A stretch of DNA of 64,000 nt from positions 26,026 to 90,025 of the forward strand of contig JBMSKF010000002.1 of the NCBI GenBank assembly GCA_049419605.1, read 5' to 3'. Source of the stretch: Bacilli bacterium (GTDB lineage: Bacteria > Bacillota_I > Bacilli_A > RFN20 > CAG-826). The notes under the pieces were generated by a model that had not been told where the DNA came from, made no database searches, and was given only the letters and a program-made list of their open reading frames with translations. The position numbers and the translations under genes were made by a program. How positions within the stretch are numbered: position 1 is the first letter of the stretch; each line of letters begins with the position of its first letter. Below are positions 9,465-51,670 of this stretch, piece by piece.

Positions 9465-12035
9465 ATGGCAGATAATAAAGATCCAAAAGTTGAGGGTGTG
9501 ATTCAAGAAGGCATCGAAGCTGGTTTAAAAGACGTCGATATTTCTAACGAAGTACGGACTGCATTTTTAGACTATTCGATGTCTGTTATTGTCTCGCGGG
9601 CTATCCCTGATGTGCGTGATGGTTTAAAGCCAGTGCATCGTCGGATTATTTTTGGCATGAATGAATTAGGGATGCAATCCGATAAACCCTATAAAAAATC
9701 AGCGCGTATCGTTGGGGATGTCATGGGTAAATTTCACCCTCACGGTGACCAAGCGATTTACTCAACCCTTGTTCGTTTAGCTCAACCTTTCTCGATGCGG
9801 TACACCCTTGTCGATGGTCATGGTAACTTCGGATCCGTCGATGGTGATGAAGCGGCAGCGATGCGTTATACCGAAGCCAGAATGGCAAAGATGGCCATGG
9901 AAATGGTCAAAGATATTGACGATGAAACCGTTGATTTTGTTGATAACTATGATGGGACAGAAAAAGAACCAGTTGTATTACCCTCTCGCTTTCCTAACCT
10001 CTTAGTCAATGGTGGTTCAGGAATTGCGGTTGGGATGGCGACCAATATGCCAACCCACAACTTAAGAGAAGTCGTGAGTGCCATTAAAGCTTATTCTAAA
10101 AATCCTGACATCGATGTTTTAGAATTGATGCAAGATCACATTCAAGGTCCTGATTTCCCTACAGGCGGAATCATTCTTGGTAAAGCAGGTATTCGCCAAG
10201 CCTATGAAACTGGAACCGGGTCGTTGGTGATTCGTTCCAAAGTCGATATTCAAGAATTTGAAAATGGAAAAAAACGAATTATCGTTAAGGAAATTCCTTA
10301 CCAAGTAAACAAAGCTTCCATGATTGAAACCATCGCTGATTTAGTGAGAAATAAAGTCATCGAAGGTATTACCGATATTCGTGACGAATCCAACAAAAAC
10401 GGAATTCGTGTCGTCATCGAAGTTCGTCGAGATATTATTCCAGAAGTCTTACTGAATCAACTCTATAAACATACCCAACTTCAAGTTAGTTTTGGCATTA
10501 TTAACCTTGCCCTTGTGAACGGTCAACCCAAAGTGCTATCACTGAAATCGATGATTCAACATTATCTCGATCATCAAATTGAAGTGGTAGAAAGAAGAAC
10601 ACGGTATCAATTAACTAAAGCTGAAGATCGCATTCATATCGTAAATGGTTATCTTATCGCTATCAACAATATTGATGCAATCGTTGATATTTTAAAGAAA
10701 TCCGCAAACATCGATGTAGCCAGAACCACATTAGCGCAAAAGTTTAGTCTTTCTGAAAAACAAACTAAAGAAATAGTCGACATGCCTTTACGACGATTAA
10801 CTGGTTTAGAAAAACAAAAACTAGAAGACGAAAAACTTCAATTAGAAAAGAATATTGCCTATTACAAACAATTACTTGGTAATCGCCAAATGGTTGTGGA
10901 TGTGATTCTGCAAGACTTGGATGTCATTGCCAATAAGTTTGGCGATGACCGCATGACGGAAATTTCAGATAACCTCTCTTCAATTGAAGACGAAGATCTC
11001 ATTCCGGAAACCAGTATTGTCATTACCATGACACAAAATGGTTATATTAAGCGACAATTACCCGAAGTATTCCGAACCCAAAATCGTGGTGGCCGAGGGG
11101 TTAAAGGTGCTGGTTTAAATGAAAACGATATTGTTTCCATTATTGTCAACGCCAGAACCCACACGGATATTTTATTTTTCTCCAACCTAGGAAAAGTTTA
11201 TCGCTTGCGCGGTTATCAAATTCCTGAATTTGCACGGACTGCAAAAGGTATTCCGGTTGTGAACTTATTGAGTTTGGAAAAACAAGAAACCATCAAATCG
11301 ATTATTTCTGTTGATGAATACACTGAAGGTCATTACCTATTCTTCATCACAGAAAAAGGTGTCGTTAAGCGCACAGAAATAAAAGAATTTGAATCGATTC
11401 GCCAAAACGGAAAAATTGCCATCTCACTCAGAGAGGGTGATATGTTACTTGATGTCAAACAAACCACCGGTAATCTATTGGTCAGTTTAGCCTCATCCAC
11501 TGGTAAGATGGTGACCTTCCCGGAAAGTGAAGTTCGCGATATGGGAAGAACTGCGGCAGGTGTTCGCGGTATGAAGTTAGCAGAAGGCGCCAAAGTCATC
11601 GGTGTATCCACCACTTCAGAGGGTAAATATATCCTTGTTGTAACGAACAAAGGTTTTGGAAAGATGACTGCCTTTGAAGAATATCGTCAAACCAAACGCG
11701 GAGCAAAAGGGGTTAATACCATTAAAGCTTCTGATAAAAATGGAAACCTTATCGCCTTAAAAGCTGCTAATGGTGATGAAGATTTATTAGTCGTCACCAA
11801 AGCAGGTGTCATCATCCGTATTTCCTTAACACAGGTCCGAGTGATCGCTCGTTCTACTCAAGGTGTGCGTTTAATTCGATTGGGTGAAAAAGAATTTGTT
11901 TCCTCAATTGCGATTGTTGAACCAAGTTTAGAAGAACCAACCGAAGAAGTTGAAACCGTAGAACTAGACAATCCTAACGAGCCAGAAACCCCAGACACAG
12001 ATGAAGGGGATGACGACGAAGAAGTGGAGGCTTAG
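9465..12035 (+). CDS. gyrA: DNA gyrase subunit A (with an acidic C-terminal tail)
   Basis: A QRDR-type 'HPHGDQAIYSTLVRLAQ' and the active-site region 'AAMRYTEARM'. The C-terminal beta-pinwheel repeats end in an E/D-rich tail. Confidence 0.97.
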   Translation: MADNKDPKVEGVIQEGIEAGLKDVDISNEVRTAFLDYSMSVIVSRAIPDVRDGLKPVHRRIIFGMNELGMQSDKPYKKSARIVGDVMGKFHPHGDQAIYSTLVRLAQPFSMRYTLVDGHGNFGSVDGDEAAAMRYTEARMAKMAMEMVKDIDDETVDFVDNYDGTEKEPVVLPSRFPNLLVNGGSGIAVGMATNMPTHNLREVVSAIKAYSKNPDIDVLELMQDHIQGPDFPTGGIILGKAGIRQAYETGTGSLVIRSKVDIQEFENGKKRIIVKEIPYQVNKASMIETIADLVRNKVIEGITDIRDESNKNGIRVVIEVRRDIIPEVLLNQLYKHTQLQVSFGIINLALVNGQPKVLSLKSMIQHYLDHQIEVVERRTRYQLTKAEDRIHIVNGYLIAINNIDAIVDILKKSANIDVARTTLAQKFSLSEKQTKEIVDMPLRRLTGLEKQKLEDEKLQLEKNIAYYKQLLGNRQMVVDVILQDLDVIANKFGDDRMTEISDNLSSIEDEDLIPETSIVITMTQNGYIKRQLPEVFRTQNRGGRGVKGAGLNENDIVSIIVNARTHTDILFFSNLGKVYRLRGYQIPEFARTAKGIPVVNLLSLEKQETIKSIISVDEYTEGHYLFFITEKGVVKRTEIKEFESIRQNGKIAISLREGDMLLDVKQTTGNLLVSLASSTGKMVTFPESEVRDMGRTAAGVRGMKLAEGAKVIGVSTTSEGKYILVVTNKGFGKMTAFEEYRQTKRGAKGVNTIKASDKNGNLIALKAANGDEDLLVVTKAGVIIRISLTQVRVIARSTQGVRLIRLGEKEFVSSIAIVEPSLEEPTEEVETVELDNPNEPETPDTDEGDDDEEVEA

Positions 12036-23611: not shown

Positions 23612-25714
23612 CTAAGATTTGATTTTACTCTCTATATTACTTGTATCGATGATTGGCATCTCAATGGTGCGATTGTTTTTCTCATCAATGGTGTCTACCA
23701 CACTAAATGGTGTGTTTTGAATAATTTGATACAAGTGATCCATCGTGTGGAAGTAAGGATAAATTAAATCTGCATCCGAGAAACTAAATTCCAAGTCGTG
23801 CACTAATTTTTCGTGTAATTCAAATAAACCTTCAAAGGACGTTAAACGTGCATCTTTTTTGAGTTGATGATCCACATAATGCTTTGTCATCACCATTTCT
23901 TCAATGCTCATAGGAATGTAACCTTGGGTCATTTGATTCGCGGTCCAACGCAAGTGTTCTTGGCGAGCAAGCAAGTTACGAATTTTTTTCGCAACCGGTT
24001 TATATCGGTTAAGGTCTGCATCATTCTTGGCGCGGGGATGAACTTGATGGAATCGAGATTGTTCATCTTCATCATATCGTTTCATGAATTTATTTTCTGA
24101 TAAACCCTTGGGTTGTGGTGCTAAATCTAACCCCATTAAATTTAATTTAAAACGAAGACTGATAGCCTCATAGAGTAAGTTTTCTTTTTCTTGCGAAAGC
24201 AATGTATCAAAGGGTTTATTTGGATTGAGAGAAGCGTGTATGTTTTTTGCGATTTGAGTAAACACTGGATTGATAATTTGATTTAACGAATAACCATAAT
24301 CACCAAAACCAAACGCAATCACACTAGGGTGTTTAAATAATTGACTGGTTTGTTGATAGTCTCGATTGAGGATTTGTACAAAGATTTGAAACTTTTGTAA
24401 TCGTTTTTCGATTATCCAACTCAGAACTTGTTGAAGCACTCTGAGATTGGTGACATCGTCATCAAAGGCTACAACGAAGATTTGATAGTCATCATTTTTG
24501 GAAAGACTTGATGACACCACATCTAGATAACGACTATCTTGAAAAGTTGTGTTGATGGTTTTTGTTTCTGCAGAAAGCGGTGGCAATGGTAAATAGTCAC
24601 GTTTTTGGATGGAAGGAACTGCAAAGGTTTTGATCGTGCCACCATTGACTAACGGATCGCGGTATATGTGGTAAGTGATAGGAGGATTTGCATAGTTGGT
24701 AAATTCTTTTCCGAAGAATTTCGACGCTTTGGGTGGGAATTGATTGGTGACAAAGAGATGACGATAAATTTCTTCGTTGGTTTGACCAAATCCTAGTAAA
24801 TGATATTTAATGCTGACGTCTTCCAAAGTCGCTTTTTCAAAGTTAATCATCGTCTTTGGTAAATAAGAAGTTAATGGATACTCAAGAACAAGTTGCTGTG
24901 CAATTAATTGGTGGTAAGAGAAAAATCTAATTTTTTGTTTTTCCTGACTAAAAGATTCGTAAATAGGGAGATGTTGTTTATCTTGATATAACAGATAACT
25001 TTTTAATTTGCTGTTGGGGTTTTGTTGATAATATCGATTGAGCTTTTCCACCAACGCCATCACGTCTGTATCTTTGGTTAATAAACTGACCAGTGTGGTT
25101 TCTTGTTGTTTAGAGCCGATTAACGATTCTAGTTTTTGGCTAGACACATCGAAATTGGTAAAACCAGGTTTAAAAGCATACTTTGTATTGATTTCTTTGT
25201 TTGTTAATAATGCTTTAGGTAACGCCACATTAATGAGTTTTGTGTGGCGGTTTTTCTTAGCTTCCTTTTCAAATGACTTCAAGAGATAAGTTAATTTATC
25301 ATCATCCGCTAAAACTAAATAATGGGGTCGTTGTTGGATGAGAAAGAATCTCATTTTTAAAGCGAGATTATTAAAAAATACTGCAAAAATTAAAATATAT
25401 GTGTAGCCAAATCCGATGACATGGATTGCATAGGCTGACAAAAGAAAGAGTAAGTCGTTATTGATACGATTACTAATTTCAGTGGTACGAAAGATTCCCC
25501 TTAAGATTGCGGTCGTATTACCGAAAGCTTTAAGGACCAAATCCACCGTGTTTAATGTTTCTCCATTTCCAATTAATCCATAAGTGTAAAGGGCAACACC
25601 AAGGACAATCACACCTAAAAAGAAGTGAAATTTATATTTGGCGAGATCAAGATAGATCATCGCACCAATCAACCCCAATGTTCCAATAAATAACAATAAA
25701 GAAATAAAGTCCAT
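23612..25714 (-). CDS. Unknown membrane protein: N-terminal TM bundle, two Rossmann/RCK-like segments and a C-terminal RyR-like helical motif
   Basis: 700 aa from 'MDFISLL'. It has 3-4 N-terminal TM helices. 'LLGFGQTNEEIYRHL' is encoded at about 24769-24797. 'ARQEHLRWTANQMTQGY' is encoded at about 23915-23975. Its start overlaps the stop of the upstream ORF (TAATG). Confidence 0.7.
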   Translation of the reverse strand: MDFISLLLFIGTLGLIGAMIYLDLAKYKFHFFLGVIVLGVALYTYGLIGNGETLNTVDLVLKAFGNTTAILRGIFRTTEISNRINNDLLFLLSAYAIHVIGFGYTYILIFAVFFNNLALKMRFFLIQQRPHYLVLADDDKLTYLLKSFEKEAKKNRHTKLINVALPKALLTNKEINTKYAFKPGFTNFDVSSQKLESLIGSKQQETTLVSLLTKDTDVMALVEKLNRYYQQNPNSKLKSYLLYQDKQHLPIYESFSQEKQKIRFFSYHQLIAQQLVLEYPLTSYLPKTMINFEKATLEDVSIKYHLLGFGQTNEEIYRHLFVTNQFPPKASKFFGKEFTNYANPPITYHIYRDPLVNGGTIKTFAVPSIQKRDYLPLPPLSAETKTINTTFQDSRYLDVVSSSLSKNDDYQIFVVAFDDDVTNLRVLQQVLSWIIEKRLQKFQIFVQILNRDYQQTSQLFKHPSVIAFGFGDYGYSLNQIINPVFTQIAKNIHASLNPNKPFDTLLSQEKENLLYEAISLRFKLNLMGLDLAPQPKGLSENKFMKRYDEDEQSRFHQVHPRAKNDADLNRYKPVAKKIRNLLARQEHLRWTANQMTQGYIPMSIEEMVMTKHYVDHQLKKDARLTSFEGLFELHEKLVHDLEFSFSDADLIYPYFHTMDHLYQIIQNTPFSVVDTIDEKNNRTIEMPIIDTSNIESKIKS

Positions 25715-27021
25715 TATTGAATCCACCCCGCAATTTGGACACCCAAATATATTAATAAACCAGCAACAAGTAGAACCACCAATAACTTCCAGTGCGTAAA
25801 GATCCAACGAACAATCTTATAAATAAAGCCCGTTGCTCCAAAAATAAATTTGATAGGGGTTGCGATGACCTTACCCATGGTTTTAAGTAACATCATTAAA
25901 CGATGCCGAACTCTCGGTAATCTTGCTTTCTTATCTGATTCGTAAACCAAACTTAGAACTGGCACTGCGTAACGATGACCTTTTTCTTGATACGTTAAAT
26001 GATAAATCCTCACTTTGGATAAGGTTGTTTCTTCATAGTCATAATCTGTTCCGTTTGACCTTTGAAGCGTGGCTTGGCTATAGCGATAACCAAATTTAGG
26101 TCCAATAACAAGGACATAAGTAAAGTTATGGGTTTGTTTTTCTTTGAGTTTTACTTGATCATTAATTTTATAAATGGATTGATAACGGTATTGTTTGTAA
26201 GAGAAGAAGTTTTGGATTAAATTCCAATCTGATTTTTCACCCGTTTCAATTTTACGTGGCTCTTTTGCAATGGTTTCTTTTTTTTCTAGAGTAAACGTTT
26301 CCCCGTCTAAAGTAGGATCAACGTCAGTGGTATTGGTGACTTTTTTCGCTTGATAAACATACCGACTTTCTTGATAATTAACCTTCATTTCAACGATATC
26401 TTCAGGAACAAAATATTTTTTTTGTTTTGTGTCAAAAAGGTTAAAGGCAACATAATATAGTTTGGTTGCCTTTGCTTTTAAGGATGAAATATCGCGATAA
26501 AAAAAAGGTCGACCTAATAAATCTTCAACTTTGTTTTGGACTGTCGACATGTCAATTATGTCGTAAAGCAATTCACCTTCTAGTTGGGTTTGAAAATATT
26601 TTTTTGAATCATAATAATACTGATCGTTTAAGATTCCAAAGATATGCTCTTCTTTCACTGTTGATGTGGTTCTTTTTAACACATCATCAATAAATACATA
26701 TTCGGAAATATCAAGCTTACCCGGTTTAAACGGAGCAGGGATAACATATTTATGAACAAAACCTTCCTCGTCTTGTATTTGAACACCATAACGATGTTTA
26801 TTGATCACTATTTCTGTTAAATACTGACCACTTTGAGGTAAATAAAAAAAGATGACCAATTCTTTTTTGTTTTCAAATAAACCTAAGATCGTTGCATGGA
26901 TTAGTGAGGCTTTGGTGTCGCGATATTTTTTTAAATCTAAATTGATTAGCAAAGCATCTTCAATTAAAGGAGAGTAACGATCCAATTTAAATTTGTTGAG
27001 AAGGATAGTTTCGTCTTTCAT
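25714..27021 (-). CDS. Unknown tail-anchored protein (soluble ~370 aa plus a C-terminal TM helix)
   Basis: 435 aa ending in 'WKLLVVLLVAGLLIYLGVQIAGW'. I recognise no family. TATAAT lies 6 nt upstream of the ATG and there is no Shine-Dalgarno. Confidence 0.65.
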   Translation of the reverse strand: MKDETILLNKFKLDRYSPLIEDALLINLDLKKYRDTKASLIHATILGLFENKKELVIFFYLPQSGQYLTEIVINKHRYGVQIQDEEGFVHKYVIPAPFKPGKLDISEYVFIDDVLKRTTSTVKEEHIFGILNDQYYYDSKKYFQTQLEGELLYDIIDMSTVQNKVEDLLGRPFFYRDISSLKAKATKLYYVAFNLFDTKQKKYFVPEDIVEMKVNYQESRYVYQAKKVTNTTDVDPTLDGETFTLEKKETIAKEPRKIETGEKSDWNLIQNFFSYKQYRYQSIYKINDQVKLKEKQTHNFTYVLVIGPKFGYRYSQATLQRSNGTDYDYEETTLSKVRIYHLTYQEKGHRYAVPVLSLVYESDKKARLPRVRHRLMMLLKTMGKVIATPIKFIFGATGFIYKIVRWIFTHWKLLVVLLVAGLLIYLGVQIAGWIQ

Positions 27022-30412: not shown

Positions 30413-30926
30413 AATATTACTTAATTCCAGTCTAGCTTTTTTTACGTTTATTCTGGTTAGCCACTATGGTTTTTATGCAGTAACCGATGATATGTATTTA
30501 AATTATGAATTGCTCAATATTTTTCCTATCATTCATATGTTTTGGGGTCTTTGGTTTATTATTTTTTCCTTGTTTTTGATTTTTCAACTAAATAAAAGCA
30601 AATATTTTATTGTGCCCCTTGTTATCTTCTTTTCTCTTGCTAACCTTTTAGTAGGAATCCTTCGTCTTGATCGACACTACGAGGTTATAAGAAATGACAA
30701 TCACAAAATCTACGTTGAGCAATATCAGTTTTTGTGGGTAAGAACTTATTATTTTTACTATGAAGTGAATGCTCTATATTCCGTTTATATAAACTATATC
30801 AGTGAAGATGAAAGCGAATCGTCGTATGAACTTGTGGGTGACCAACTTATTTTACGTGAATTTAAAACCGAACCCTATGAACTCTTCGAAGAAAAAACTA
30901 TCGATTTGTTATCATTAGTAGGATGA
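30390..30926 (+). CDS. Membrane protein of unknown function
   Basis: 178 aa with 3 N-terminal TM helices and a soluble tail. It overlaps both neighbours. Confidence 0.6.
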   Translation: MKFHKPHKILLNSSLAFFTFILVSHYGFYAVTDDMYLNYELLNIFPIIHMFWGLWFIIFSLFLIFQLNKSKYFIVPLVIFFSLANLLVGILRLDRHYEVIRNDNHKIYVEQYQFLWVRTYYFYYEVNALYSVYINYISEDESESSYELVGDQLILREFKTEPYELFEEKTIDLLSLVG

Positions 30927-31438
30927 AACCAAAGAGAATTGTTGTTACACCATACAACCCACTATGGAAGTGGTCTTTTGTGTTGATTCGTAAACGATTA
31001 CAACGAGTTTTAGACACTTTTAATGAATCCATTCACCATGTTGGTAGCACTTCGGTTGAAGGACTTCCTGCAAAACCCATTATTGATATCGATGTAGAAA
31101 TTAAATCTTTCAATGGATTTGAAAAAGTTAAAGAAAAATTACAACGGCTTGGTTATCGGCATGTTGGCGATCAAGGAATTAAAGGACGAGAAGTGTTTAA
31201 ATTAAAAAGTTGGAGCCTTCTTCCTAAACATCATCTGTATGTTTGTGTGTCTGGATCATCTGAACTCAATAGACACATTGCATTCAGGAATTATTTAATC
31301 GCGAATCCCAAAACTAAAGAAGCCTATGGAAAACTCAAGATAGAAGCAGCAAAAAAGCATCCATATGACATGGATGCTTATTTAAAGATGAAGGGTGAAT
31401 TAATCAATAAAGTTTATCAGGAATTAGGGTTAGATTAA
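30923..31438 (+). CDS. GrpB-family protein (nucleotidyltransferase-fold, UPF0157)
   Basis: 'HHVGSTSVEGLPAKPIIDIDV' and 'FRNYLIANP...YGKLK' are typical of GrpB. Confidence 0.8.
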   Translation: MKPKRIVVTPYNPLWKWSFVLIRKRLQRVLDTFNESIHHVGSTSVEGLPAKPIIDIDVEIKSFNGFEKVKEKLQRLGYRHVGDQGIKGREVFKLKSWSLLPKHHLYVCVSGSSELNRHIAFRNYLIANPKTKEAYGKLKIEAAKKHPYDMDAYLKMKGELINKVYQELGLD

Positions 31439-32202
31439 GCTAAGATGATGCCGATAAAGACTAACCAGGCTAGGATGGATTTACCAAACAAACTTAACCA
31501 AACATAACTCTTTTCTCCGTAGACATAATCTTTCCATTTGCCAACGCGAGCATATTGTAAGATTTGGTTGAAAGCAAAGAGGTTAAAGACCAAGAAGTAG
31601 AAACTTAAACCTGGTAAGACGAACCAAGGTAAGACTGATAAATCACCAATGTTTAACATGTAGATGACGATGATTACCCAAGGGATTAAACCTGCAATCC
31701 AACCAATCCAGTGAGCAGTCCAATCTGTTTTGGTACGGCTAGGAGGATTCATTTTTTCCATCAAGAGACCCAGTAAGTTCATCACCGCGTTAATCCCAAA
31801 GACACTGAGTAAGCCTTCGATGGTAGTGACACCAAACATGATGGATAAGAGCACGATCATAATGGAAGAAGATAAAGCGTATTCATACCAACGTAAAGGA
31901 TTGATTCCTTTTTCAACATTGGCGACATATTGTTTCTTAAAAGGCACTGAGATTAAGAAGTGGAAAAGGGCGCTCAATAAGATGAAACTAGCGGCAAGAA
32001 TCGCCACTGGTATTTGAAATAACACATCTTCAAAAGAAAAGTACGGAATGGTTGAGTTTTGGATGAAAAACCTTCCCACGACATAAATTGAAGGTCTAAA
32101 GTCACGGAATAATGGAACCGTTAAGGCGAGGATTAACAAGGCAATCCCTTGGACAAGGTGAACCAAGCCCATCTTCAAATTGAAACTAATTAATTTATTC
32201 AT
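31435..32202 (-). CDS. Heliorhodopsin (inverted-topology 7-TM retinal protein)
   Basis: 255 aa with 7 TM helices. Motif-for-motif it resembles heliorhodopsin 48C12 as I recall that sequence: 'LSALFHF', 'RWYEYALSSS' (Glu107), 'FGINAVMNLLG', 'IAGLIPW', 'FNLFAFNQILQY', 'GKW' and 'LSLFGKSILAW'. Lys241 (codon 31480-31482) sits at the Schiff-base position. An AGGAG Shine-Dalgarno is present. Confidence 0.85.
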   Translation of the reverse strand: MNKLISFNLKMGLVHLVQGIALLILALTVPLFRDFRPSIYVVGRFFIQNSTIPYFSFEDVLFQIPVAILAASFILLSALFHFLISVPFKKQYVANVEKGINPLRWYEYALSSSIMIVLLSIMFGVTTIEGLLSVFGINAVMNLLGLLMEKMNPPSRTKTDWTAHWIGWIAGLIPWVIIVIYMLNIGDLSVLPWFVLPGLSFYFLVFNLFAFNQILQYARVGKWKDYVYGEKSYVWLSLFGKSILAWLVFIGIILA

Positions 32203-32273
32203 AGATTTCTCCTAAGAGCAATATATCACTCTTAGTTATTACCTAACTTAAAGATGCTTGCCGTGAAGAGAAA

Positions 32274-32516
32274 TTATTTCTTATTTGCTTTTATTTTCGA
32301 AGACTTCACTACAATCCATCCCTTTTCAATAAAGAGTTTCCATAAGGCCATGGAGTGGCCGCGACCAAGTTTGTATTCCTTAGCTAACCAATCAACAAAT
32401 TTACTTGCAGTAAGATCGGGCGTAAGAAGACCGTCTTTTGCAGCTTTGTTTTTAATAGCGTCTGTTGTGGTTTTGGTGATGGCCATGATGTTAGCGATAT
32501 AAGCTTGAAATGACAT
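32274..32516 (-). CDS. DUF4287-domain protein
   Basis: 80 aa. 'MSFQAYIANI...T', 'FVDWLAKEYKLGRGHSMALW' is the typical DUF4287 pattern. Confidence 0.75.
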   Translation of the reverse strand: MSFQAYIANIMAITKTTTDAIKNKAAKDGLLTPDLTASKFVDWLAKEYKLGRGHSMALWKLFIEKGWIVVKSSKIKANKK

Positions 32517-32526: not shown

Positions 32527-33792
32527 CTATAAAGTATTTCCGAATGTTGCTACGACTTGATTTAAAAAAGATTCGTATTCATCTAAGAGAGCAAAATAAG
32601 CTTCACTTTCTGAAAAATTAAAATTGACATCAAAGTTATTACCTTGACCTGATCCAATCCTAGTAATGAGCGACGTGTTACGCATTGCTTCTATTAAACC
32701 TTCCAAGGTGACCCTTGAGGCATAATCATATCCATAACCCCATGTTCTTGATTCATCCTGGTAGTATGTTACACCAAATAAAATATTTGAAAGATTGGCT
32801 TCGGGGTTATTGAACAACGCTAGATAATGATAGGTCTCTTCGACTGGATTAAGAACTTTCATTTCAAAATCATGAACCGAATCATTGATCATCGTGATGT
32901 AAATATGATTATTTTCGTCTTGCATTAGATAACGTCTACCTACAACCAATTGATTTTCATAAATTTCATTAACATATGCTTCGGCATCTCGAAACAACCT
33001 TTGATCGTTTATAAAAATGGCATCTAAATCAAGATCAATGCGAATATCAATCACAACCTTTCCATATATTTCATATTGAAAGGTCGAAGAAGAAGTTTTA
33101 TAAATGACATATTTTGTTTCATTCACGATAAAGAGTTGTAAATTTTCTGTATTGATGTTGATTAGATTCAAATAATGTTGATTGTCGATGATGAGTTGGG
33201 TTGACTGGAGTATTTTTTGGATGTTGTTTCTCGTCTCAGCATATTGTTCGTTTAAAGCTGCATTTTCTGATTCTGCAACCACTTCTCTAACAAGATCAAC
33301 CACCCCATAATTTAATGGTGTGATGTACTCATTTAGTAATTCATAAACCTTATTTAATTCAATGTTGGTCATTAAACCACCTGCGATGTTTCTGGACTCT
33401 AGTTCGGTAATGATAGAGGGATCGTTAATCAAATAACAGTTAGTTTCACCATAACAAGCATCATTAATCAGGCCTGACCGCCCACCCAATAAAACGACAC
33501 CCACACTGACGGCCAATGCGACACTTGCACTGGCGGCGATAATTGGTTTTAAAGGTAATTTTTTCTGTTCAATTTTATCTAAGCTATCCTTGTCGTTAAA
33601 GTAATCTAAGGGCACCTCAAAATAAACACAAATGAGTTTGAGACTATTGATGTGAATCTGTCTTGTTCCCTTCTCCCAATTACTAATGGTGGTGTTGTTA
33701 ACAAAAATAGCTTTAGCTAACTCAGCTTGAGAAATACCTTTTTTAGTTCTTAATTGGCGAAGTTTTTCACCGATGATGTTTTGTTGATTCAT
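32527..33792 (-). CDS. Membrane-tethered XRE-family transcriptional regulator (HTH, TM helix, ~300-aa extracytoplasmic domain), paralog 1
   Basis: A Cro/C1 HTH 'LRQLRTKKGISQAELAKAIFVNNTTISNWEKGTR' and one TM helix 'IIAASASVALAVSVGVVLL'. The outside domain starts 'NDACYGETNCYLINDPSII'. Confidence 0.8.
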   Translation of the reverse strand: MNQQNIIGEKLRQLRTKKGISQAELAKAIFVNNTTISNWEKGTRQIHINSLKLICVYFEVPLDYFNDKDSLDKIEQKKLPLKPIIAASASVALAVSVGVVLLGGRSGLINDACYGETNCYLINDPSIITELESRNIAGGLMTNIELNKVYELLNEYITPLNYGVVDLVREVVAESENAALNEQYAETRNNIQKILQSTQLIIDNQHYLNLININTENLQLFIVNETKYVIYKTSSSTFQYEIYGKVVIDIRIDLDLDAIFINDQRLFRDAEAYVNEIYENQLVVGRRYLMQDENNHIYITMINDSVHDFEMKVLNPVEETYHYLALFNNPEANLSNILFGVTYYQDESRTWGYGYDYASRVTLEGLIEAMRNTSLITRIGSGQGNNFDVNFNFSESEAYFALLDEYESFLNQVVATFGNTL

Positions 33793-33820: not shown

Positions 33821-35200
33821 TTAATAAACAATCGCATCTAGCGTAAAAGTATCGTCTAGTAAAAATTGGAAAATTTCCTCAAGTTCAAGATACGTATCGG
33901 CGACCGTTTGATCGATCAAGTCTGAATGGAAAATGGATTTATCTTTTGCCCAATCCAACCAATCTTGTAATGTGAAATCTTGACCCAACATTTCTTGATC
34001 GATCCGGTAAGAAATACCTCCTCCACTTATGGGGAGGACCAAACTTGTATAACCATAGTCATAAACATTTAAACTTAACGAGGGTAAGTAGGTTTCATAA
34101 CCACCATTAAAACCAGCCCCAATTGAATAGGTTCTCGTTGAATTGAAAGGATTGTGTTGGATTGAGAAGAAAGGAACCTCTAGCGCATAAATGGGGTGGT
34201 CTTTCATGTAATAATAAATTCCATTTTGAATTATATAAATTCCATCCTCCGTTTCAAAAAAGTTTACGGTAATCTTTGTTGATTCATTTTCATATAGAAA
34301 TGGACTGGTATTAAAGACATTTTCAAAAGGATAACTTTCAACAAAGTGATCATAGATGACTTTGGGTGAAAGATAACTTTTGTCACCAAAATAGATTGTG
34401 TTCAACTCCAATTGAATATTAAAAACATATTGTTGAGTGCTATAAATTTCATATTTAAATACATCGGTGGATATCTTATAAATAATATGTTTTTCCAAAT
34501 TAAACCCAGACCCCAAATAAAATAATTGATTACCCAAGGGGTTGCTTGTGTCTAAATTAAAGACAGAAAGATTGGGAAATGGACTAGGCTGATTTTCGTT
34601 ATAGAAGTCATTCACAAGATTCTCTAGATTTTGTCTTATTTGTTCTGTTTCGGGAGGGAAATTTAAATAATATTGTTTTGTATTGATTTCATTAAGTTTT
34701 GATTGATTAAATTGATGGTCTTTATTTCCAACAGTAAATGTTTCCAAGAAATATTTTAATCTTTCCATTTCCACATTGGTCATTTGACCACCGCTAATGT
34801 TTCTTGAAGATAATTCACTAACAATCGACGGATCATCGATTAAATAACAAACCAGTTCCCCATAACAAGCTTCGTTATTGATATTGGCTCTACCATTTAA
34901 GGCGACAACCGTTAAACTAACAAGCATCGCCACTCCAGCACTGCCTGCAAGTAAAGCTTTTAATGGGACTTTTCTCCAAGACTCTTTCTTTTCATCTGGC
35001 TCTAAAAAATAAGAAACCGGAACACCAAAGTAATCACTCAGAGCTTTAAGGTTATCGGTTTGAATCTTACGAGTTCCTTTTTCCCAATTACTAATGGTGG
35101 TGTTTTTAACAAAAATAGCGGCAGCCAATTCTGCCTGACTTACTTTTCTTTTCGTTCTAAGTAATCGGAGTCTTTCCCCGGGTTCGATCTTAACTCTCAT
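33821..35200 (-). CDS. Membrane-tethered XRE-family transcriptional regulator, paralog 2
   Basis: It has the same architecture: 'LRLLRTKRKVSQAELAAAIFVKNTTISNWEKGTR', a TM helix, then 'NNEACYGELVCYLIDDPSIV'. I chose the start 'MRVKIEPGE' at 35200. Confidence 0.8.
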   Translation of the reverse strand: MRVKIEPGERLRLLRTKRKVSQAELAAAIFVKNTTISNWEKGTRKIQTDNLKALSDYFGVPVSYFLEPDEKKESWRKVPLKALLAGSAGVAMLVSLTVVALNGRANINNEACYGELVCYLIDDPSIVSELSSRNISGGQMTNVEMERLKYFLETFTVGNKDHQFNQSKLNEINTKQYYLNFPPETEQIRQNLENLVNDFYNENQPSPFPNLSVFNLDTSNPLGNQLFYLGSGFNLEKHIIYKISTDVFKYEIYSTQQYVFNIQLELNTIYFGDKSYLSPKVIYDHFVESYPFENVFNTSPFLYENESTKITVNFFETEDGIYIIQNGIYYYMKDHPIYALEVPFFSIQHNPFNSTRTYSIGAGFNGGYETYLPSLSLNVYDYGYTSLVLPISGGGISYRIDQEMLGQDFTLQDWLDWAKDKSIFHSDLIDQTVADTYLELEEIFQFLLDDTFTLDAIVY

Positions 35201-35267
35201 TAGACCTATTATAATCGATTCATTACTTTCTATTTTATTAAATAACAACACTTGATATAGTGGTTTT

Positions 35268-35681
35268 ATGCCACTAGATGTAACCCATAACTCAATTGAT
35301 TCTTATATCAAAAATCTTCCAGAAAACAGAAGGACGGATGTACTTTGGCTTGTTGAGAAAATGGAAAAAATTTCCAAACGCAAACCAAAGCTTTGGGGGT
35401 CTATCATCGGGTTTGGTCGACTGTATTACCGTTATCCTACCGGAAATGATGGATATATGCCTATCATTGCACTTTCCAGTCGCAAACAAGCATTGACATT
35501 ATATTTATCATTTAATTTAGAAAAAGAAGTGGAATTAAAAAATTTAGGAACATACAAAATTGGGAAAAGTTGTCTTTATATTAAAAAACTATCAGACATC
35601 CATTTAAAAGTACTCTTAACAATCATTAAAAAAGCTTATCTTCAATCGCTTGCCTATGATTTTATAAAAGTAATCGAATAA
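35268..35681 (+). CDS. DUF1801 (YdhG-like) domain protein
   Basis: 137 aa. 'IDSYIKNLPENRR...LWGSIIGFG' and 'ALTLYLS' are typical of DUF1801. Confidence 0.7.
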   Translation: MPLDVTHNSIDSYIKNLPENRRTDVLWLVEKMEKISKRKPKLWGSIIGFGRLYYRYPTGNDGYMPIIALSSRKQALTLYLSFNLEKEVELKNLGTYKIGKSCLYIKKLSDIHLKVLLTIIKKAYLQSLAYDFIKVIE

Positions 35682-35684: not shown

Positions 35685-37703
35685 TTAGACTCTTGTTTTG
35701 ATTTGCGAACGATAAATATTCGCATAGGTTCCGTTGTTCGCAATTAATTGCTTGTGGGTGCCTTCTTCAACCTTTAAACCATTTTCTAAGACAACAATTT
35801 TGTCAGCATTTTTAATGGTAGATAATCGATGGGCAATTACAATTAACGTTCTCCCTTTTCTTGCTTTTTCTAGTGCTTTTTGAATTCGCATTTCGGTTTC
35901 TGTGTCGATATTTGCAGTGGCCTCATCCATGATTAAAATAGCGGGATCGTGAACAATGGCCCTTGCAAAAGAAATGAGTTGTTTTTCCCCCACGCTTAAA
36001 TTGGATCCACCACGTGATACGGGTTGTTGAATACCCTTTTCCAATTTGTCTAAGAGGTGGTCGCCACCAATATTTCTTAAAACCTTTTCCGCCTCCTCAT
36101 CGGTTACAGAACTGATTCCGAAACGAATATTATCTGCAATCGTACCTTTAAACATGACTGGATCTTGAATGATGATGCCTATGTGAGAACGGAAAGTCCG
36201 TTTTGGATGAGTCGTGATATCAACACCATCGACATAAATCTTGCCCATATCACCCTCTTTAAAATCATAAAACCGTAAGAGTAAATTTGTCAGGGTTGAT
36301 TTACCTGAACCTGTATGACCAACTAAACCGATCATTTGACCCGCGTCAATTTTTAAAGTGATGCCTTTAATAATGGGGTGACCTTTTTCATAAGAAAACC
36401 AAACATTATCGAATAAGATGTCGCCACGATATCTAGGAATGGTTGTTAAAGCGTTGTCTTCTTGTTCTCCATCAATAACCCTAAATATTCTTTCGCTTTT
36501 TACTAAGGAATGTTGGAGGTTTCCAATTTCTCTAAATAATGTGCCCACTGGTTCAATTAATCGAGACAAGTAATCGTTGTAAGCGTAAATAATACCAGCA
36601 CTGATAACGACACCACTGATGGACAAATAACCATAGCCAAAAAAGATAACGATAAAAGCAGTAACTAATGCCCCCACCAAGCGGATCATGTTCCAACCAA
36701 TGGAGAGATGTAAATGTTGTTCTTTCAGGATTTCTTTTTGGGTATCCAATGAAAGTTGATCAAACTTTTGTTCAATTGATTTTCTAAAGTTAAAGATTTG
36801 GAGGATAGAAATACCGTTAATAATTTCATTAAGCTGAGCAGTAATCATCGACGAGTTTTCATTAACTTTGACGGCGAGTTTGTTGAGTTTTTTCACAAAG
36901 AATCGCAACCAAACATAGACAACAGGAAAGAATATAAAAGTTAAGAACGCAAGAGTTGCGTTTAAATAAAACATTCCCACGTAGGCGAAGATAACAGCCA
37001 ACGAAGCATTTACTAACAAGTTCATAATCGTAGAAAATAAACCCATCATTCCACCTACATCACTGATAACGCGATTGGCAATCTTACCAGAAGGTTCACT
37101 TTCAAAATAAGACATCGGCATGCGTTGTAAAGACCTTACGGCATCTTTTCTTGCATCGCGAACCATGTTCACTGTGATCATCCCAGTACTAATGCGTTGG
37201 ATATATGTAAATAAAATTTGTAAAAGTAATCGTACAAACAATAATGCTATCAACCAAATCAATGGTTCAACGCTCGGTTGATAGAACGCGAACACTTCAT
37301 CGCGCGTTAAAGGTGTGACGTCATAAGTGAACGTTTGGTTGTCCGGTGTGAGAATAGTTAATTGGTTTCCATCCAATATTTTTTGGCCAATGACCACGAC
37401 ATCTTCAGAAAAATAATAACGAGTCCCTATCACAACAATTGACACTCCGTGATTGGTGATCGTTTCTTGTTGAAAGAATCGATTATTGTATTCAACAGCA
37501 TCAGTTGTTTCGGTTGTTTCATACCAGGGTTTTTCGATTCCTACTAAGTAATCATCTATGATAGTTTTTACAATTAAAGGCGCGACTAATCCAAGCAATT
37601 GAACAACCAACATCGCGGATATGGTTAAAGTTAACAACCCTTTGTAAGGAATAATGTAACGCCAAACTTTTTTAATGGTTTTGAACATATCTTTAATCCT
37701 CAA
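35685..37703 (-). CDS. ABC exporter, fused permease/ATPase subunit (with a large extracytoplasmic loop insert)
   Basis: Walker A 'GHTGSGKST', signature 'LSVGEKQ' and Walker B 'ILIMDEATA'. An insert of about 100 aa lies between TM1 and TM2. Confidence 0.9.
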   Translation of the reverse strand: MRIKDMFKTIKKVWRYIIPYKGLLTLTISAMLVVQLLGLVAPLIVKTIIDDYLVGIEKPWYETTETTDAVEYNNRFFQQETITNHGVSIVVIGTRYYFSEDVVVIGQKILDGNQLTILTPDNQTFTYDVTPLTRDEVFAFYQPSVEPLIWLIALLFVRLLLQILFTYIQRISTGMITVNMVRDARKDAVRSLQRMPMSYFESEPSGKIANRVISDVGGMMGLFSTIMNLLVNASLAVIFAYVGMFYLNATLAFLTFIFFPVVYVWLRFFVKKLNKLAVKVNENSSMITAQLNEIINGISILQIFNFRKSIEQKFDQLSLDTQKEILKEQHLHLSIGWNMIRLVGALVTAFIVIFFGYGYLSISGVVISAGIIYAYNDYLSRLIEPVGTLFREIGNLQHSLVKSERIFRVIDGEQEDNALTTIPRYRGDILFDNVWFSYEKGHPIIKGITLKIDAGQMIGLVGHTGSGKSTLTNLLLRFYDFKEGDMGKIYVDGVDITTHPKRTFRSHIGIIIQDPVMFKGTIADNIRFGISSVTDEEAEKVLRNIGGDHLLDKLEKGIQQPVSRGGSNLSVGEKQLISFARAIVHDPAILIMDEATANIDTETEMRIQKALEKARKGRTLIVIAHRLSTIKNADKIVVLENGLKVEEGTHKQLIANNGTYANIYRSQIKTRV

Positions 37704-39432
37704 GACCTGTCAGTTGAGTAATATATTGTCGCTTATACCAACCATCTTCTCGAATCAATGAGTCATGGGTGCCGCGTTGACTAATTTCACCTTGCTCCAA
37801 AACAAGAATAAAGTCTGCTTCTTGAATTGCGGAAAAACGGTGAGTCACAATAATATTAGTTTTCCCTTTTCTTAAATCTTTAAGGTGTTGCACAATCGTT
37901 CGTTCTGTTTTCATGTCAACCGCACTCAACGAATCATCGAGAATCAAGATTTGTGGATCTTTAATTAACGCCCTAGCAATCGATAATCGTTGCTTTTGTC
38001 CACCAGAAAGATTAACGCCGGTCTCACCCATCATGGTTTGCAAACCCGATTGTAAATAAGGTAAATCCTTTTCAAAGTCAGCCATTTTGACAGCACTTTT
38101 CACAACTTCATCGGAAGCATTAGGCTTCCCAATCTTGATGTTTTCTTCAACGGGTAATTTAAAAAGAATATGGGATTGAGGAACGTAGCCTACTAATTGT
38201 CTTATGTCTTCAATTTTAAATCTTTCGATGGGTGTGTTATCAATTAAAACAGATCCTTTTGATACATTAAATTCACGAAGTAATTGGCGAATTAAGGTTG
38301 ACTTGCCCGCTCCAGTTGGACCCACAATGCCTATCGTTTGTCCTTTTTGAATACTAAAAGAAATATTTTTAATTACGGGTTGTTTATCAAACGGATATTG
38401 AAAGGTGACACCTTTAAAATCTATTGTTTGAAAGTCGATAATGGTTTGAGAAGTAGAACTATCATGGACAATCGGTTGATGGTTCATGACTTCTTCCATC
38501 CGATCAATGGCAATCGTCGCTTGATTGAGTTGAGCAAAAATACCCGAGATTGAAATAAACGGACCAAATAACATCCCAATATAAGTCACAAAAGTAATTA
38601 ATCCACCTAACGACATCATTTGTTGAATAATGAAATATGTGCCAAAGGCAAAGGCGAGTGTATAAGCAATCCCATAAATCACTTCAAATAAAGGGTTAAA
38701 CCAGTTTTCAAATTTTACAATATAACGCCAGGACTCAATGTCATTGGTAATTTCTTGATGTTGCTTTTTAAGATCGATATCTTCCTGAACATAGGCGCGT
38801 ATAGCTTTTTGTCCTTCAACAGACTCCAACATTTTTTCCGTAAACGCAGCGTATATATCTCGGTGTTTTTTAAAGTATTGTCTTTTGCCTTCACGAACTA
38901 AATTAAGAATCGTTAACCCAATTGGCATGATGATGACTGAGATTAAAGTAAGTTGCCAACTGATGGTCACCATCATCAATGTTAATGTGATGATTATAAA
39001 TCCAATGTTAAAAACCAACCCTTCCAACAAACCTGTTGCCGATTGAATAATGGAATCTAAATCACCGGTTACTCGAGAAATTAAATCACCCTTCTGATAT
39101 TTTTCATAAAAACTAGAATCCATGTTAAATAAATGACCCAAGTATTTTTTTCGCATTGTGTGGGCGAGCTGTTGTGATTTTTTTACTGTCGTGAAGTTAT
39201 ATAAATAACTGAGTCCATACCGTATCACTGGAAAAGCAATTAGTGCACCACCTAAAAATAATAATGATTGATAAGTTAATCCACCTGAGATGATCGTGTC
39301 GATGGATAAACCAAGTAACCAACCTGGAATCAAGGCAAATAAAGCAATACTGATCAGTAAGACAAACATTAAAACATAAGTCTTCCATTCTTGTTTAACG
39401 TACCAACCAATATGTTTCAATAACTTGCCCAT
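37693..39432 (-). CDS. ABC exporter, fused permease/ATPase subunit (heterodimer partner)
   Basis: Walker A 'GPTGAGKST', signature 'LSGGQKQR' and Walker B 'ILILDDSLS'. It overlaps its partner by 11 nt. I chose the ATG at 39432; the ORF track starts at the TTG at 39441. Confidence 0.9.
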   Translation of the reverse strand: MGKLLKHIGWYVKQEWKTYVLMFVLLISIALFALIPGWLLGLSIDTIISGGLTYQSLLFLGGALIAFPVIRYGLSYLYNFTTVKKSQQLAHTMRKKYLGHLFNMDSSFYEKYQKGDLISRVTGDLDSIIQSATGLLEGLVFNIGFIIITLTLMMVTISWQLTLISVIIMPIGLTILNLVREGKRQYFKKHRDIYAAFTEKMLESVEGQKAIRAYVQEDIDLKKQHQEITNDIESWRYIVKFENWFNPLFEVIYGIAYTLAFAFGTYFIIQQMMSLGGLITFVTYIGMLFGPFISISGIFAQLNQATIAIDRMEEVMNHQPIVHDSSTSQTIIDFQTIDFKGVTFQYPFDKQPVIKNISFSIQKGQTIGIVGPTGAGKSTLIRQLLREFNVSKGSVLIDNTPIERFKIEDIRQLVGYVPQSHILFKLPVEENIKIGKPNASDEVVKSAVKMADFEKDLPYLQSGLQTMMGETGVNLSGGQKQRLSIARALIKDPQILILDDSLSAVDMKTERTIVQHLKDLRKGKTNIIVTHRFSAIQEADFILVLEQGEISQRGTHDSLIREDGWYKRQYITQLTGLED

Positions 39433-39537
39433 AATCTTCAATTTTCCAATAGCATTATACGCTTATTAATCATCGATTGTTTTGCTTTCAATACAAGGAA
39501 ATTTTCAAGTTCTCGGACGAGCGATGGGTGGTAAAAT

Positions 39538-49502: not shown

Positions 49503-50549
49503 ATGAATGATTTAAAAAACCTTACTACCCCTATTCCCACTCGTTGGGTTGGTCCTCTCCATTTTGCCAATGTATCCACCCTTGGCAATCGGCAAACGAT
49601 AAGCCCAACTCAAGTTCCCTTAGCAACTTTAGAAACGACTTTGTTTTTTTCAGTTGCAAGAGGAAGTAAAGCAATCACTGCTGCTGGTGGAGTTAATTCC
49701 ACTCTTCTTAGTGACTCGATGACGAGATCCATTACATTAGAAACAAAAGACGCTGCAGAAGCTTCCGCACTTGGGCAATTTGTCAAAACCAATCTTTCCA
49801 AACTTCAACGTGACATTGTTATGAATGTTAGTCGTTATGCCCAATTACAAACAATTGATGTTTATCAAGTTGCCAACTTAGTTTACCTAAGAATTGCAAT
49901 CTTTTCTGATAATGCCAGCGGTCATAATATGGTGACTTTAGTTGCGGATGCAATTGGCGATTATGTTTTAAATGAATTTAAAAACGCTAAGTATGTCTCG
50001 GTTTCGGGCAATATGTGTGTAGATAAGAAAGTAAGTGTCATCAATGGTTTAAAGGGTCGAGGCAAGCATGTGATTTCCGAAATTACAATTCCGCGACATG
50101 TTGTAGAAGACGTTTTAAAAACAACACCAGAAAAAATTGTTGATCTTAATATTAAGAAAAACCTTTTGGGTTCAATCATGGCAGGATCTGTCCATAGTGC
50201 AAACGCTCATTATGCAAATATGCTTTTAGCAATCTATCTTGCAACAGGTCAAGACGCAGCAAATATCGTCGAAGGTTCACAAGGTATTACTTATGCTGAA
50301 GTTAGAGATAATCAATTATATTTTTCAACGACCATTCCTAATATTATTGTAGGAACTGTTGGCAACGGAAAGAATGAAGTTCATTTTCAAGAAAGATTAG
50401 AAACCATGGGGTGTAAGGGTCCTTCTTCAGGCCAAACATTAGCTCATTTAGTGGGAGCAACGGTGTTAGCAGGAGAACTTTCTCTGCTTGCAGCATTAAC
50501 CAATCCTCACGAACTGATGAAAGCACACACGAGCATAGAAAGAAAATAG
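49503..50549 (+). CDS. HMG-CoA reductase, short class-I-type
   Basis: 348 aa. 'ATLETTLFFSVARGSKA', 'DNASGHNM', 'SGNMCVDKKVSVINGLKGRGKHV', 'GQDAANIVEGSQGIT' and 'GTVGNGK' parallel the class I motifs TTEGCLVAS, DAMGMN, SGNxCxDKK, GQDxAQxVESS and GTVGGGT. Confidence 0.8.
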   Translation: MNDLKNLTTPIPTRWVGPLHFANVSTLGNRQTISPTQVPLATLETTLFFSVARGSKAITAAGGVNSTLLSDSMTRSITLETKDAAEASALGQFVKTNLSKLQRDIVMNVSRYAQLQTIDVYQVANLVYLRIAIFSDNASGHNMVTLVADAIGDYVLNEFKNAKYVSVSGNMCVDKKVSVINGLKGRGKHVISEITIPRHVVEDVLKTTPEKIVDLNIKKNLLGSIMAGSVHSANAHYANMLLAIYLATGQDAANIVEGSQGITYAEVRDNQLYFSTTIPNIIVGTVGNGKNEVHFQERLETMGCKGPSSGQTLAHLVGATVLAGELSLLAALTNPHELMKAHTSIERK

Positions 50550-50554: not shown

Positions 50555-51670
50555 ATGAAAGTTGGCATCGATTTAATTAACTTCTATACACCACAAGTGT
50601 ATTTAGACTTAGCTGAGTTAGCTTCCGTCCGCCAAGTTCCTGTAGAAAAATATACGGTGGGAATCGGTCAAGAAAAAATGTCTTTAATTGATCCGTTTGA
50701 AGACATCGTCACCATGGCAGCAGAAGCTGCCTACGACATTGTCAAAGGTCGTGAACAAGATATAGGATTGGTTTTATTTGCTACTGAATCTGGTGTTGAT
50801 TATTCAAAATCGGCAGGCGTTTATTTACATGCTTTGCTTCAATTAAATCATAATTGTCGTGTATTGGAAGTGAAGCAAGCGTGTTTTGCTGCGACTGGGG
50901 CGTTGTTGCTTGCCAAGGATTATGTTGCGTTACATCCTGATAAATTAGCACTTGTCATCGCCAGCGATGTTGCTTGGTATGGCTTGAATACACCTGGAGA
51001 AGTCACCCAAGGTGCAGGCGCAGTTGCGATGTTGGTGAGTGTGAATCCTCGTCTCGCTGTGATTGAAGAAGGAAAAGCGATTGTAGAAAACAGTAAGGAT
51101 TTTTATAGACCCTCTTACAATGAGGTTCCCATTGTAGACGGTAAATTATCTATTCGCAGTTATAAAGAATTACTCAAACAAGTAAAACCTGAAAAACCAC
51201 TCAAATTCGTTTGTTTTCATATGCCGTTTGCTACCATGAGCGATAAAGCAAGCGAGGTCTTAACGTTACCTTTGACCCCAGAAGTTTTGCTAGCTACAAA
51301 AGCATTCAATAAAGAAGTTGGCAATATTTATAATGGGTCTTTATACCTTTCATTGATTTCGTTATTAACAACCTATCCTGAATCTTTGATAAACCAAACG
51401 ATTGGTATGTTTTCTTATGGCTCAGGAGCGACTGGAGAAACCTTCTATTTAACCATGCAACCCCAATATGAAAAAATCATCGATAAAAATGCGTTTTTAA
51501 GTTTAGTTCAACAAAGAAGAAAGGCTGATTTTTCAACTTATGAAAGGTTAATGTCGGGCTATGAACATCGTGAAAAAAGTTTAAATTTCACCACCACCAT
51601 TCCTAATTCAAAACACCGATTTGTTTTAACTGCGATTGTGAATGGTCATCGAGAATATTTAAAACGATAA
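50555..51670 (+). CDS. mvaS: HMG-CoA synthase
   Basis: 'MKVGIDLINFYTP', the catalytic Cys in 'VKQACFAATGAL' and a late 'NGSLY'. Confidence 0.9.
   Translation: MKVGIDLINFYTPQVYLDLAELASVRQVPVEKYTVGIGQEKMSLIDPFEDIVTMAAEAAYDIVKGREQDIGLVLFATESGVDYSKSAGVYLHALLQLNHNCRVLEVKQACFAATGALLLAKDYVALHPDKLALVIASDVAWYGLNTPGEVTQGAGAVAMLVSVNPRLAVIEEGKAIVENSKDFYRPSYNEVPIVDGKLSIRSYKELLKQVKPEKPLKFVCFHMPFATMSDKASEVLTLPLTPEVLLATKAFNKEVGNIYNGSLYLSLISLLTTYPESLINQTIGMFSYGSGATGETFYLTMQPQYEKIIDKNAFLSLVQQRRKADFSTYERLMSGYEHREKSLNFTTTIPNSKHRFVLTAIVNGHREYLKR

Follow-up and report, generated by a model that had tools for sequence, protein, structure and literature searches.

A 64,000-nucleotide stretch of DNA from a Bacilli bacterium, referred to below as the window, carries on its minus strand (positions 31435..32202) a gene for a heliorhodopsin (HeR). 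The open reading frame (ORF) is confirmed as a genuine and intact HeR of known kind that has already been annotated publicly: GenBank holds an identical protein, MFZ9138856.1, entered as 'MAG: heliorhodopsin HeR [Bacilli bacterium]' (MAG, metagenome-assembled genome), on contig JBMSIX010000001.1 of assembly GCA_049418305.1, of which the window represents nucleotides 2075-66074. The analyses described below establish that it belongs to the family, has the key residues and the fold, is under purifying selection and has variable neighbours, and they predict its topology. We consider it very probable that this intact gene, maintained by selection in an uncultured freshwater Bacilli bacterium, encodes a retinal-based, non-pumping light sensor that is transcribed alone and acts on another protein. 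The gene is otherwise nothing categorically new, and its modest, testable point of interest is a clade-specific pair of residues, His164 and Trp168, at the lateral fenestration.

Identification of the heliorhodopsin gene

The coding sequence (CDS) runs uninterrupted from ATG to TAA and specifies 255 amino acids; its assignment draws on the ORF and profile matches, an AlphaFold2 (AF2) model, Foldseek comparisons and substitution rates. The protein matched the Pfam family PF18761 with 262.6 bits (E = 3.7e-78, cut-off 26.7) over positions 2-241 of the 242-position profile, and the NCBIfam equivalog NF038020, 'heliorhodopsin HeR', with 259.6 bits (cut-off 100). In a sequence search of the PDB, all solved heliorhodopsins, including 6is6 and 6su3, were matched with E values of about 1e-45. 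Such scores exclude a chance match, and the initial annotation, which had named the product a heliorhodopsin from the sequence alone, is borne out by them. The six motifs that it had quoted are all present at their places in the product, i.e. LSALFHF at residues 76-82, RWYEYALSSS at 104-113, FGINA at 135-139, IAGLIPW at 169-175, GKW at 221-223 and LSLFGKSILAW at 236-246, with the small correction that the conserved histidine of LSALFHF is residue 81, which aligns with His80 of the HeR 48C12.

Individual residues were compared in an alignment that joined the query to 48C12 and TaHeR and to two further sets of HeRs, 116 close homologues and 21 distant sequences taken from genomes. The retinal Schiff-base lysine in transmembrane helix 7 (TM7), Lys241 (codon AAA, 31480..31482, minus strand), aligns with K241 of 48C12 and K238 of TaHeR, and the Schiff-base counterion in TM3, Glu107 (codon GAA, 31882..31884, minus strand), with E107 and E108, respectively; both had been placed correctly in the initial annotation. 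Lys241 is invariant in 116/116 close and 21/21 distant HeRs (137 aligned sequences), and Glu107 is invariant as well. Sixteen further residues fall on the corresponding residues of 48C12, namely His15, Ser77, His81, Asn101, Trp105, Tyr108, Ser112, Asn138, Met141, Pro174, Trp175, Phe206, Asn207, Gln213, Ser237 and Trp246, and nearly every column of these 18 key HeR residues is invariant among the aligned HeRs. His15 and His81 occupy the columns homologous to the conserved histidine pair H23 and H80 of 48C12.

The AF2 model, at a mean pLDDT of 80, shows seven transmembrane helices together with an AB loop forming the beta-hairpin typical of HeRs (strands 38-42 and 56-60). Foldseek aligned it to 6is6 (TaHeR) and 6su3 (48C12) with TM-scores of 0.84-0.85 and E values of about 1e-14, whereas type-1 rhodopsins reached TM-scores of only about 0.6, with E values above 1e-4. 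The inside location of the N-terminus that had been expected agrees with the distribution of Lys and Arg residues, 12 of which lie in the N-terminus and the BC, DE and FG loops versus 3 in the AB, CD and EF loops and the C-terminus; these loop charges predict the inverted topology, with a cytoplasmic N-terminus. Pairwise ratios of nonsynonymous to synonymous substitution rates (dN/dS) ranged from 0.05 to 0.16 in comparisons with the ten relatives whose dS was unsaturated, so that the gene is under strong purifying selection.

Among characterised proteins, the best match in sequence and structure was TaHeR of the Thermoplasmatales archaeon SG8-52-1 (PDB 6IS6; E = 7.6e-46, TM-score 0.84), which is alike in its counterion and lysine. 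The freshwater actinobacterial HeR 48C12 (PDB 6SU3, 6UH3 and 9LJJ) is 39-41% identical over the full length of the Foldseek alignment, with the same numbering for E107 and K241. The query keeps its residues H23, H80, S76, N101, W105, Y108, S112, N138, M141, F206, N207, A210, Q213, S237 and W246, but differs from it in a DE loop that is 2 residues longer, in a distinct AB-loop sequence, and in the replacement of F162 and C166 that is described in the following section.

In a separate alignment of 150 representatives of the HeR family, about 20 had no Lys at the K241 column, and one of them, P0327 (378 amino acids), showed Ala at 241 and Gly at 107. These representatives may be lysine-less HeR homologues or alignment artefacts.

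A clade-specific variant of the lateral fenestration

The block HWIGWIAGLIPW of the query aligns without gaps with FWFGCIAGIVPW of 48C12 and YIIGCIAGFVPW of TaHeR, so that positions 162 and 166 of 48C12 correspond to His164 and Trp168, respectively. His164 (codon CAC, 31711..31713, minus strand) thus stands at F162, which together with an opposing aromatic residue frames the fenestration, and Trp168 (codon TGG, 31699..31701, minus strand) is a bulky substitution at C166, which lines it. Both are specific to the clade, and the remaining residues of the fenestration motif, Gly171, Phe206, Asn207 and Ala210, are retained in the query.

Trp at 48C12 position 166 was found in 112 of the 116 close homologues, that is in every one at least 53% identical to the query; the other four, at 49-52% identity, have Ser there. 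It was found in 0/21 distant genome loci and in none of about 50 scored loci at 50% identity or less, and family-wide, when residues were counted on representatives clustered at 50% identity, it occurred in 3/141. His at position 162 is present in 100 of the 112 Trp-bearing homologues (100/116 of the close ones). All distant HeRs carry Phe or Tyr at this position, and the single representative with His (1/142) is a fragment. Since basal members of the clade combine Tyr or Phe at position 162 with Trp at 166, the Trp came first. Phe203 is also invariant in the clade, and the Phe203 of 48C12 is among the residues that tighten its fenestration opening.

For the fenestration, roles have been suggested in the entry of exogenous retinal (PMC9385722) and in the binding of lipids (bioRxiv 10.1101/2021.02.16.431466). 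A carotenoid-antenna motif, which requires an aromatic residue at both 162 and 206 of 48C12, a non-bulky one at both 166 and 210, and Gly at 169, was reported in 91.3% of HeRs (Kornilov et al. 2025; bioRxiv 10.1101/2025.11.27.691015). The query, with H164, F206, W168, A210 and G171 at these places, fails this motif at positions 162 and 166. It shares this failure of the fenestration and carotenoid-site rule with the HeRs lacking the carotenoid-binding site (about 8.7%, mainly viral subfamily 2; Kornilov et al. 2025), but differs from them in being bacterial and of the 48C12 type, and in failing by Trp at 166 together with His at 162, a combination that goes unmentioned in that preprint. In TaHeR the wide fenestration (Y164, C168, A200) is the proposed entry of exogenous retinal (PMC9385722); because the query has His, Trp and Phe at these three positions, such a route appears doubtful for it.

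By the published sequence rule, the clade probably lacks the lateral fenestration or has it narrowed or closed. The more specific proposal, that in the freshwater-Bacilli HeR clade (at least 53% identical) the fenestration between TM5 and TM6 would be plugged by W168 and flanked by a membrane-embedded H164, is put forward as a tentative one that we hold for rather less than probable. No mention of the His/Trp variant was found in the HeR literature searched.

Putative transcription signals

A Shine-Dalgarno-like AGGAGA lies 5 nt before the ATG (32208..32213, minus strand), and AGGAG is conserved in the aligned upstream regions. It is preceded by the extended -10-like motif TGATATATT (32220..32228, minus strand), which matches the consensus TGnTAnnnT and is the putative HeR promoter. 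TGnTAnnnT is found 25-42 nt before the HeR ATG in 18/18 aligned related loci, regardless of the gene upstream, and is followed in them by AGGAG. Downstream of the gene, 56 nt past the stop codon, a consensus match to a terminator-like hairpin with an 11-bp stem and a T-run was detected (31355..31379, minus strand), and in the related locus L018 a hairpin and T-run lie between the preceding ATP-binding cassette (ABC) gene and the HeR gene. These signals suggest that the HeR gene is a self-contained, monocistronic unit with its own promoter, in agreement with the report that about 61% of helR genes are 'alone' (PMC11109279).

The only terminator-like hairpin for the HeR gene sits within the 3' end of the CDS of the convergent GrpB-family gene. 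An operator candidate, CTAAGAG-N10-CTCTTAG, overlapping the region of the -10 motif and the ribosome-binding site was dropped, as it occurs only in the window and in the related locus L013 and its arms are not complementary in other relatives. Likewise, no claim is made for an 'AAGCAT' about 50 nt upstream as a regulator site: it was seen in about 12/18 loci, many of which come from close relatives, and its placement changes with the alignment.

Chromophore supply

No match to the crt, blh or CCD families was obtained with any ORF of at least 110 amino acids in the window. The initial annotation, which had seen no crt or carotenoid-cleavage genes there, was correct for the window, yet three C30-type carotenoid genes lie about 36.5 kb from the HeR gene on the same contig, just past the right edge of the window (L129 18219-21179, equal to about 68758-71718 in window coordinates; profile matches). 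They encode a CrtQ-like GT2 protein of 361 amino acids, homologues of which are named 4,4'-diaponeurosporenoate glycosyltransferase by JGI, a CrtO acyltransferase (PF18927, 162 amino acids) and, convergently, a crtI-family desaturase (TIGR02734, 239 bits, cut-off 238). The desaturase gene has an in-frame TAG (SNRG*IYG) in this MAG where the 97%-identical relative L130 reads SNRGSIYG, and the stop removes the C-terminal motif for flavin adenine dinucleotide; a pseudogene, a variant of this strain and an error of assembly are all conceivable. In a more distant relative the same three genes are intact, and crtM, a cyclase and blh are not beside them. Genes of the staphyloxanthin-pathway type make acyclic C30 glycolipid carotenoids without a beta-ionone ring, and such carotenoids cannot yield retinal.

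Isoprenoid supply by the mevalonate pathway is represented in the window by HMG-CoA reductase (49503..50549, plus strand; Pfam PF00368, 282 bits) and HMG-CoA synthase (50555..51670, plus strand; PF01154 and PF08540, NCBIfam TIGR01835, 351 bits), 17.3 kb from the HeR gene, close to the earlier estimate of about 17 kb. The blh, CCD or carotenoid-cyclase genes that would mark a cis-encoded retinal pathway were not found near the opsin at this locus. The rarity of blh beside HeRs is a published puzzle of the whole family, and HeRs from genomes lacking blh still form pigments when retinal is added (bioRxiv 10.1101/2021.02.16.431466). The host of TaHeR is similar, in that retinal-synthesis genes have been proposed to be lacking there and none was found here in about 75 kb of one contig.

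Gene neighbourhood of the heliorhodopsin gene

On the minus strand the HeR gene is preceded by two genes for BmrC-like and BmrD-like ABC proteins, two genes for XRE-type helix-turn-helix (HTH) proteins and a DUF4287 gene, with an opposite-strand DUF1801 gene in between; this order is found only among near relatives. The DUF4287 gene (32274..32516, minus strand; 80 amino acids, Pfam PF14117) is separated from the HeR gene by a 71-nt gap and adjoins it only in relatives at least 83% identical; it is missing in L018, L020-22 and L008-11. The tandem XRE-type HTH paralogues (32527..33792 and 33821..35251, minus strand; Pfam HTH_3) each have an N-terminal HTH followed by more than 300 amino acids without Pfam match. 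They evolve fast, with 42-83% identity where the HeRs are 83-93% identical, and are cut to 104 amino acids in L004 and L006, in which the HTH and DUF4287 genes are fragmented and the HeR gene is intact. The DUF1801 gene (35268..35681, plus strand) lies between the ABC pair and the HTH genes, on the strand opposite to the HeR gene. The block between the ABC genes and the HeR gene, comprising DUF1801, one or two HTH genes and DUF4287, varies in size from 79 nt to 3.5 kb and in content, and is shrunken or absent in relatives. On the other side, the convergent GrpB-family gene (30923..31438, plus strand; Pfam PF04229, 161.9 bits) overlaps the 3' end of the HeR gene by 4 nt (31435-31438), and is not beside it in several relatives.

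Relatives whose HeRs are 65-83% identical have unrelated neighbours, among them glyoxalase, YCII, DJ-1, acyltransferase, a phosphonate-type ABC importer and gdpP-rplI-dnaB. No conserved operon partner was found among the related loci compared, and the partner of the HeR can therefore not be read from the locus. The DUF4287 protein and the two HTH membrane proteins were considered as partners and rejected, because their genes are adjacent only at 83% identity or more and diverge faster (54% versus 83% for the HeR); their fragmentation in L004 and L006 and their absence in L018 also speak against this role. A second DUF1801 gene is located at 60202-60543 (plus strand), so that both DUF1801 genes and the DUF4287 gene lie within 30 kb, two of them beside the HeR locus.

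The ABC pair (37693..39441 and 35685..37703, minus strand) encodes a heterodimeric type-IV multidrug exporter of the BmrC/BmrD (YheI/YheH) kind, the best PDB matches being Bacillus subtilis YheH (BmrD, 459 bits) and YheI (BmrC, 451 bits). In six related lineages the distance between the pair and the HeR gene is 79 nt to 4.4 kb. L018 has the pair 79 nt upstream on the same strand (at L018 2175-5922), the window, L013, L019 and L047 have it 2.3-3.5 kb upstream, and the rearranged L010 has it 2.7 kb downstream. No ABC pair was found near the HeR gene in L004-L009, L011, L020-22 and L048-50, nor in about 50 non-clade loci. Local synteny inherited by the members of a single genus-level group would account for this patchy linkage, and the pattern fits such synteny at least as well as functional coupling.

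Probable function and alternative explanations

By comparison with the characterised members of the family, the protein would most likely carry all-trans-retinal in a protonated Schiff-base linkage to Lys241, for which Glu107 would be the single counterion, and His15 and His81 would take part in a hydrogen-bond network. It would most likely pump no ions, like the closely similar characterised prokaryotic HeRs, and is probably a light sensor with a slow photocycle, whose conformational signal would reach another protein by way of the positively charged cytoplasmic loops. The gene would be transcribed alone from its own extended -10 promoter. The statement in the initial annotation that HeRs have no generally accepted function is partly outdated, since glutamine synthetase (PMC9529153), photolyase (PMC9769723) and an ABC exporter (PMC11109279) have each been shown to be regulated by an individual HeR, and proton transport has been shown for a viral one (PMC9448325).

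Several points weigh against this light-sensor reading. Genes for blh, CCD and lycopene cyclase were found neither in the 64-kb window nor in the adjoining 10 kb, together about 75 kb of contig, which leaves the chromophore supply unproven by this stretch, and transcription from the putative promoter would leave the gene in this genome with a leader of about 10 nt, which is unusually short. The role as sensor or regulator is carried over from a small number of HeRs whose identity to the query is about 40% at most, and it is from the sequence that we infer pigment formation and a photocycle in this clade, as well as the closing of the fenestration by Trp168.

The same gap in retinal synthesis could mean that the protein has in effect no chromophore available in this organism and stays an apo-opsin, with either a light-independent role or a gene on its way to loss. 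The acyclic C30 type of the nearby carotenoid genes and the premature stop in the desaturase of this MAG would agree with this, but Lys241 and the whole retinal pocket are invariant, dN/dS stays at 0.05-0.16 across the clade, HeR genomes often have no blh although their proteins form pigments given retinal, and retinal may be taken up from the environment; an apo-opsin is therefore very unlikely. Equally concerned with pigments is the proposal of a 'two-antenna' light harvester, to which an exogenous xanthophyll would be recruited by way of the lateral fenestration (Kornilov et al. 2025). The wide occurrence of the carotenoid-binding motif (91.3% of HeRs) and the presence of G171, F206, N207 and A210 in the query speak for it. 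Two requirements of the motif fail, however, with His at 162 instead of Phe, Tyr or Trp and bulky Trp instead of a small residue at 166, and position 203 is bulky too, Phe203 being like the opening-tightening Phe203 of 48C12; as the antenna hypothesis itself rests on docking rather than on measured energy transfer, we regard this role as quite improbable here. The altered fenestration also bears on a part in light-dependent fatty-acid or lipid remodelling, suggested by DegV, DUF2177 and DUF1295 neighbours and fenestration-bound lipids and proposed for HeRs of Firmicutes and Chloroflexi (bioRxiv 10.1101/2021.02.16.431466). None of these three families turned up in the window or in the clade loci examined, and the proposed lipid site is changed by Trp168, so that there is little to recommend this part and its probability is slight.

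A regulatory role would be easiest to picture for the neighbouring BmrCD-type ABC exporter, as OcHeR of Ornithinimicrobium cerasi binds and light-stimulates the heterodimeric ABC multidrug exporter OmrDE (Cho et al., PMC11109279). The pair at 35685-39441 belongs to the transporter class regulated by OcHeR, it is close to the HeR gene in the six lineages, including the same-strand position 79 nt upstream in L018, and the cytoplasmic FG loop keeps its positive charges. In O. cerasi, however, helR and the exporter genes share an operon, whereas in the window they lie 3.5 kb apart with an opposite-strand gene and two to three others between them; the HeR gene has its own promoter-like motif, separate from the signals of the pair, a hairpin and T-run divide the two in L018, and the linkage, confined to one sub-lineage, is missing from many clade loci and about 50 non-clade loci. 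The exporter is the best local partner candidate, a weak one by analogy only, and light-dependent regulation of it by the HeR is unlikely. Finally, a light-gated proton transporter like the viral heliorhodopsin V2HeR3 would have the demonstrated proton transport of a viral HeR as its precedent (PMC9448325). Transport has been reported solely for the viral subfamily, and the query groups with the non-transporting prokaryotic HeRs 48C12 and TaHeR (38-41% identity, TM-scores of 0.84-0.85) with its residue set intact, which makes such a transporter extremely improbable. The light sensor acting on another protein thus stays the preferred explanation.

Host and other features of the window

Freshwater MAGs from Lake Mendota, Lake Tanganyika, the La Plata river and US rivers are the closest genomes; their labels read Bacilli, Bacillota or Bacillales or, for two ENA records, 'Staphylococcus epidermidis'. 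Three MAGs of the lineage, L017 (CAMCVC010000067.1), L021 (CAMBSI010000019.1) and L020, were deposited as 'Staphylococcus epidermidis' or 'uncultured Staphylococcus sp.'; as their HeR genes are 82-84% identical to those of the 'Bacilli bacterium' MAGs, these names appear to be mislabels. GyrB relatives down to 68% identity carry only Bacilli or Bacillota labels. HeR relatives at 62-65% identity are labelled Acholeplasmatales or Izemoplasmataceae, labels which do not place the host of the window; the Mollicutes-like or small-genome nature given to it in the initial annotation would be a possibility only. Firmicutes, including Tenericutes, are published HeR hosts, and a literature search for HeRs with Acholeplasma, Izemoplasma or Tenericutes found no dedicated study. 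The window is 93% coding with the standard genetic code, and no genes that would reveal the presence or absence of a cell wall were found in its 64 kb. A mevalonate pathway and carotenoid genes fit Staphylococcus- or Bacillus-like Bacilli and Acholeplasma alike.

Nucleotides 1-12035 of the window contain a replication-origin gene set, with (rpmH)-rnpA-yidC-jag on one strand and dnaA-dnaN-(S4-like)-recF-gyrB-gyrA on the other. The dnaA ORF read from a TTG has 497 amino acids and is longer than the called gene (467 amino acids). Two adjacent large ORFs on the minus strand, 23612-25807 and 25714-27021 (about 700 and 435 amino acids), have no Pfam match and are kept beside metG in L004, L005 and L007. 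Rfam and tRNA scans of the window gave no matches.

Significance for the heliorhodopsin family

The locus shows once more that HeR genes travel alone, with variable neighbours and without blh, so that neither the partner nor the source of the chromophore is readable from gene context. If the Trp168 plug is real, the clade would comprise natural 'closed-fenestration' HeRs in which retinal is loaded by another route and an external antenna is unusable, and a His in the vicinity of the beta-ionone ring may shift the colour of absorption. The clade would then be a ready negative control for the retinal-capture, lipid-binding and carotenoid-antenna hypotheses. The practical value of the His164/Trp168 pair lies in the handle that it gives on the role of the fenestration in retinal loading and in lipid or carotenoid binding, questions that are currently argued mainly from structures and docking.

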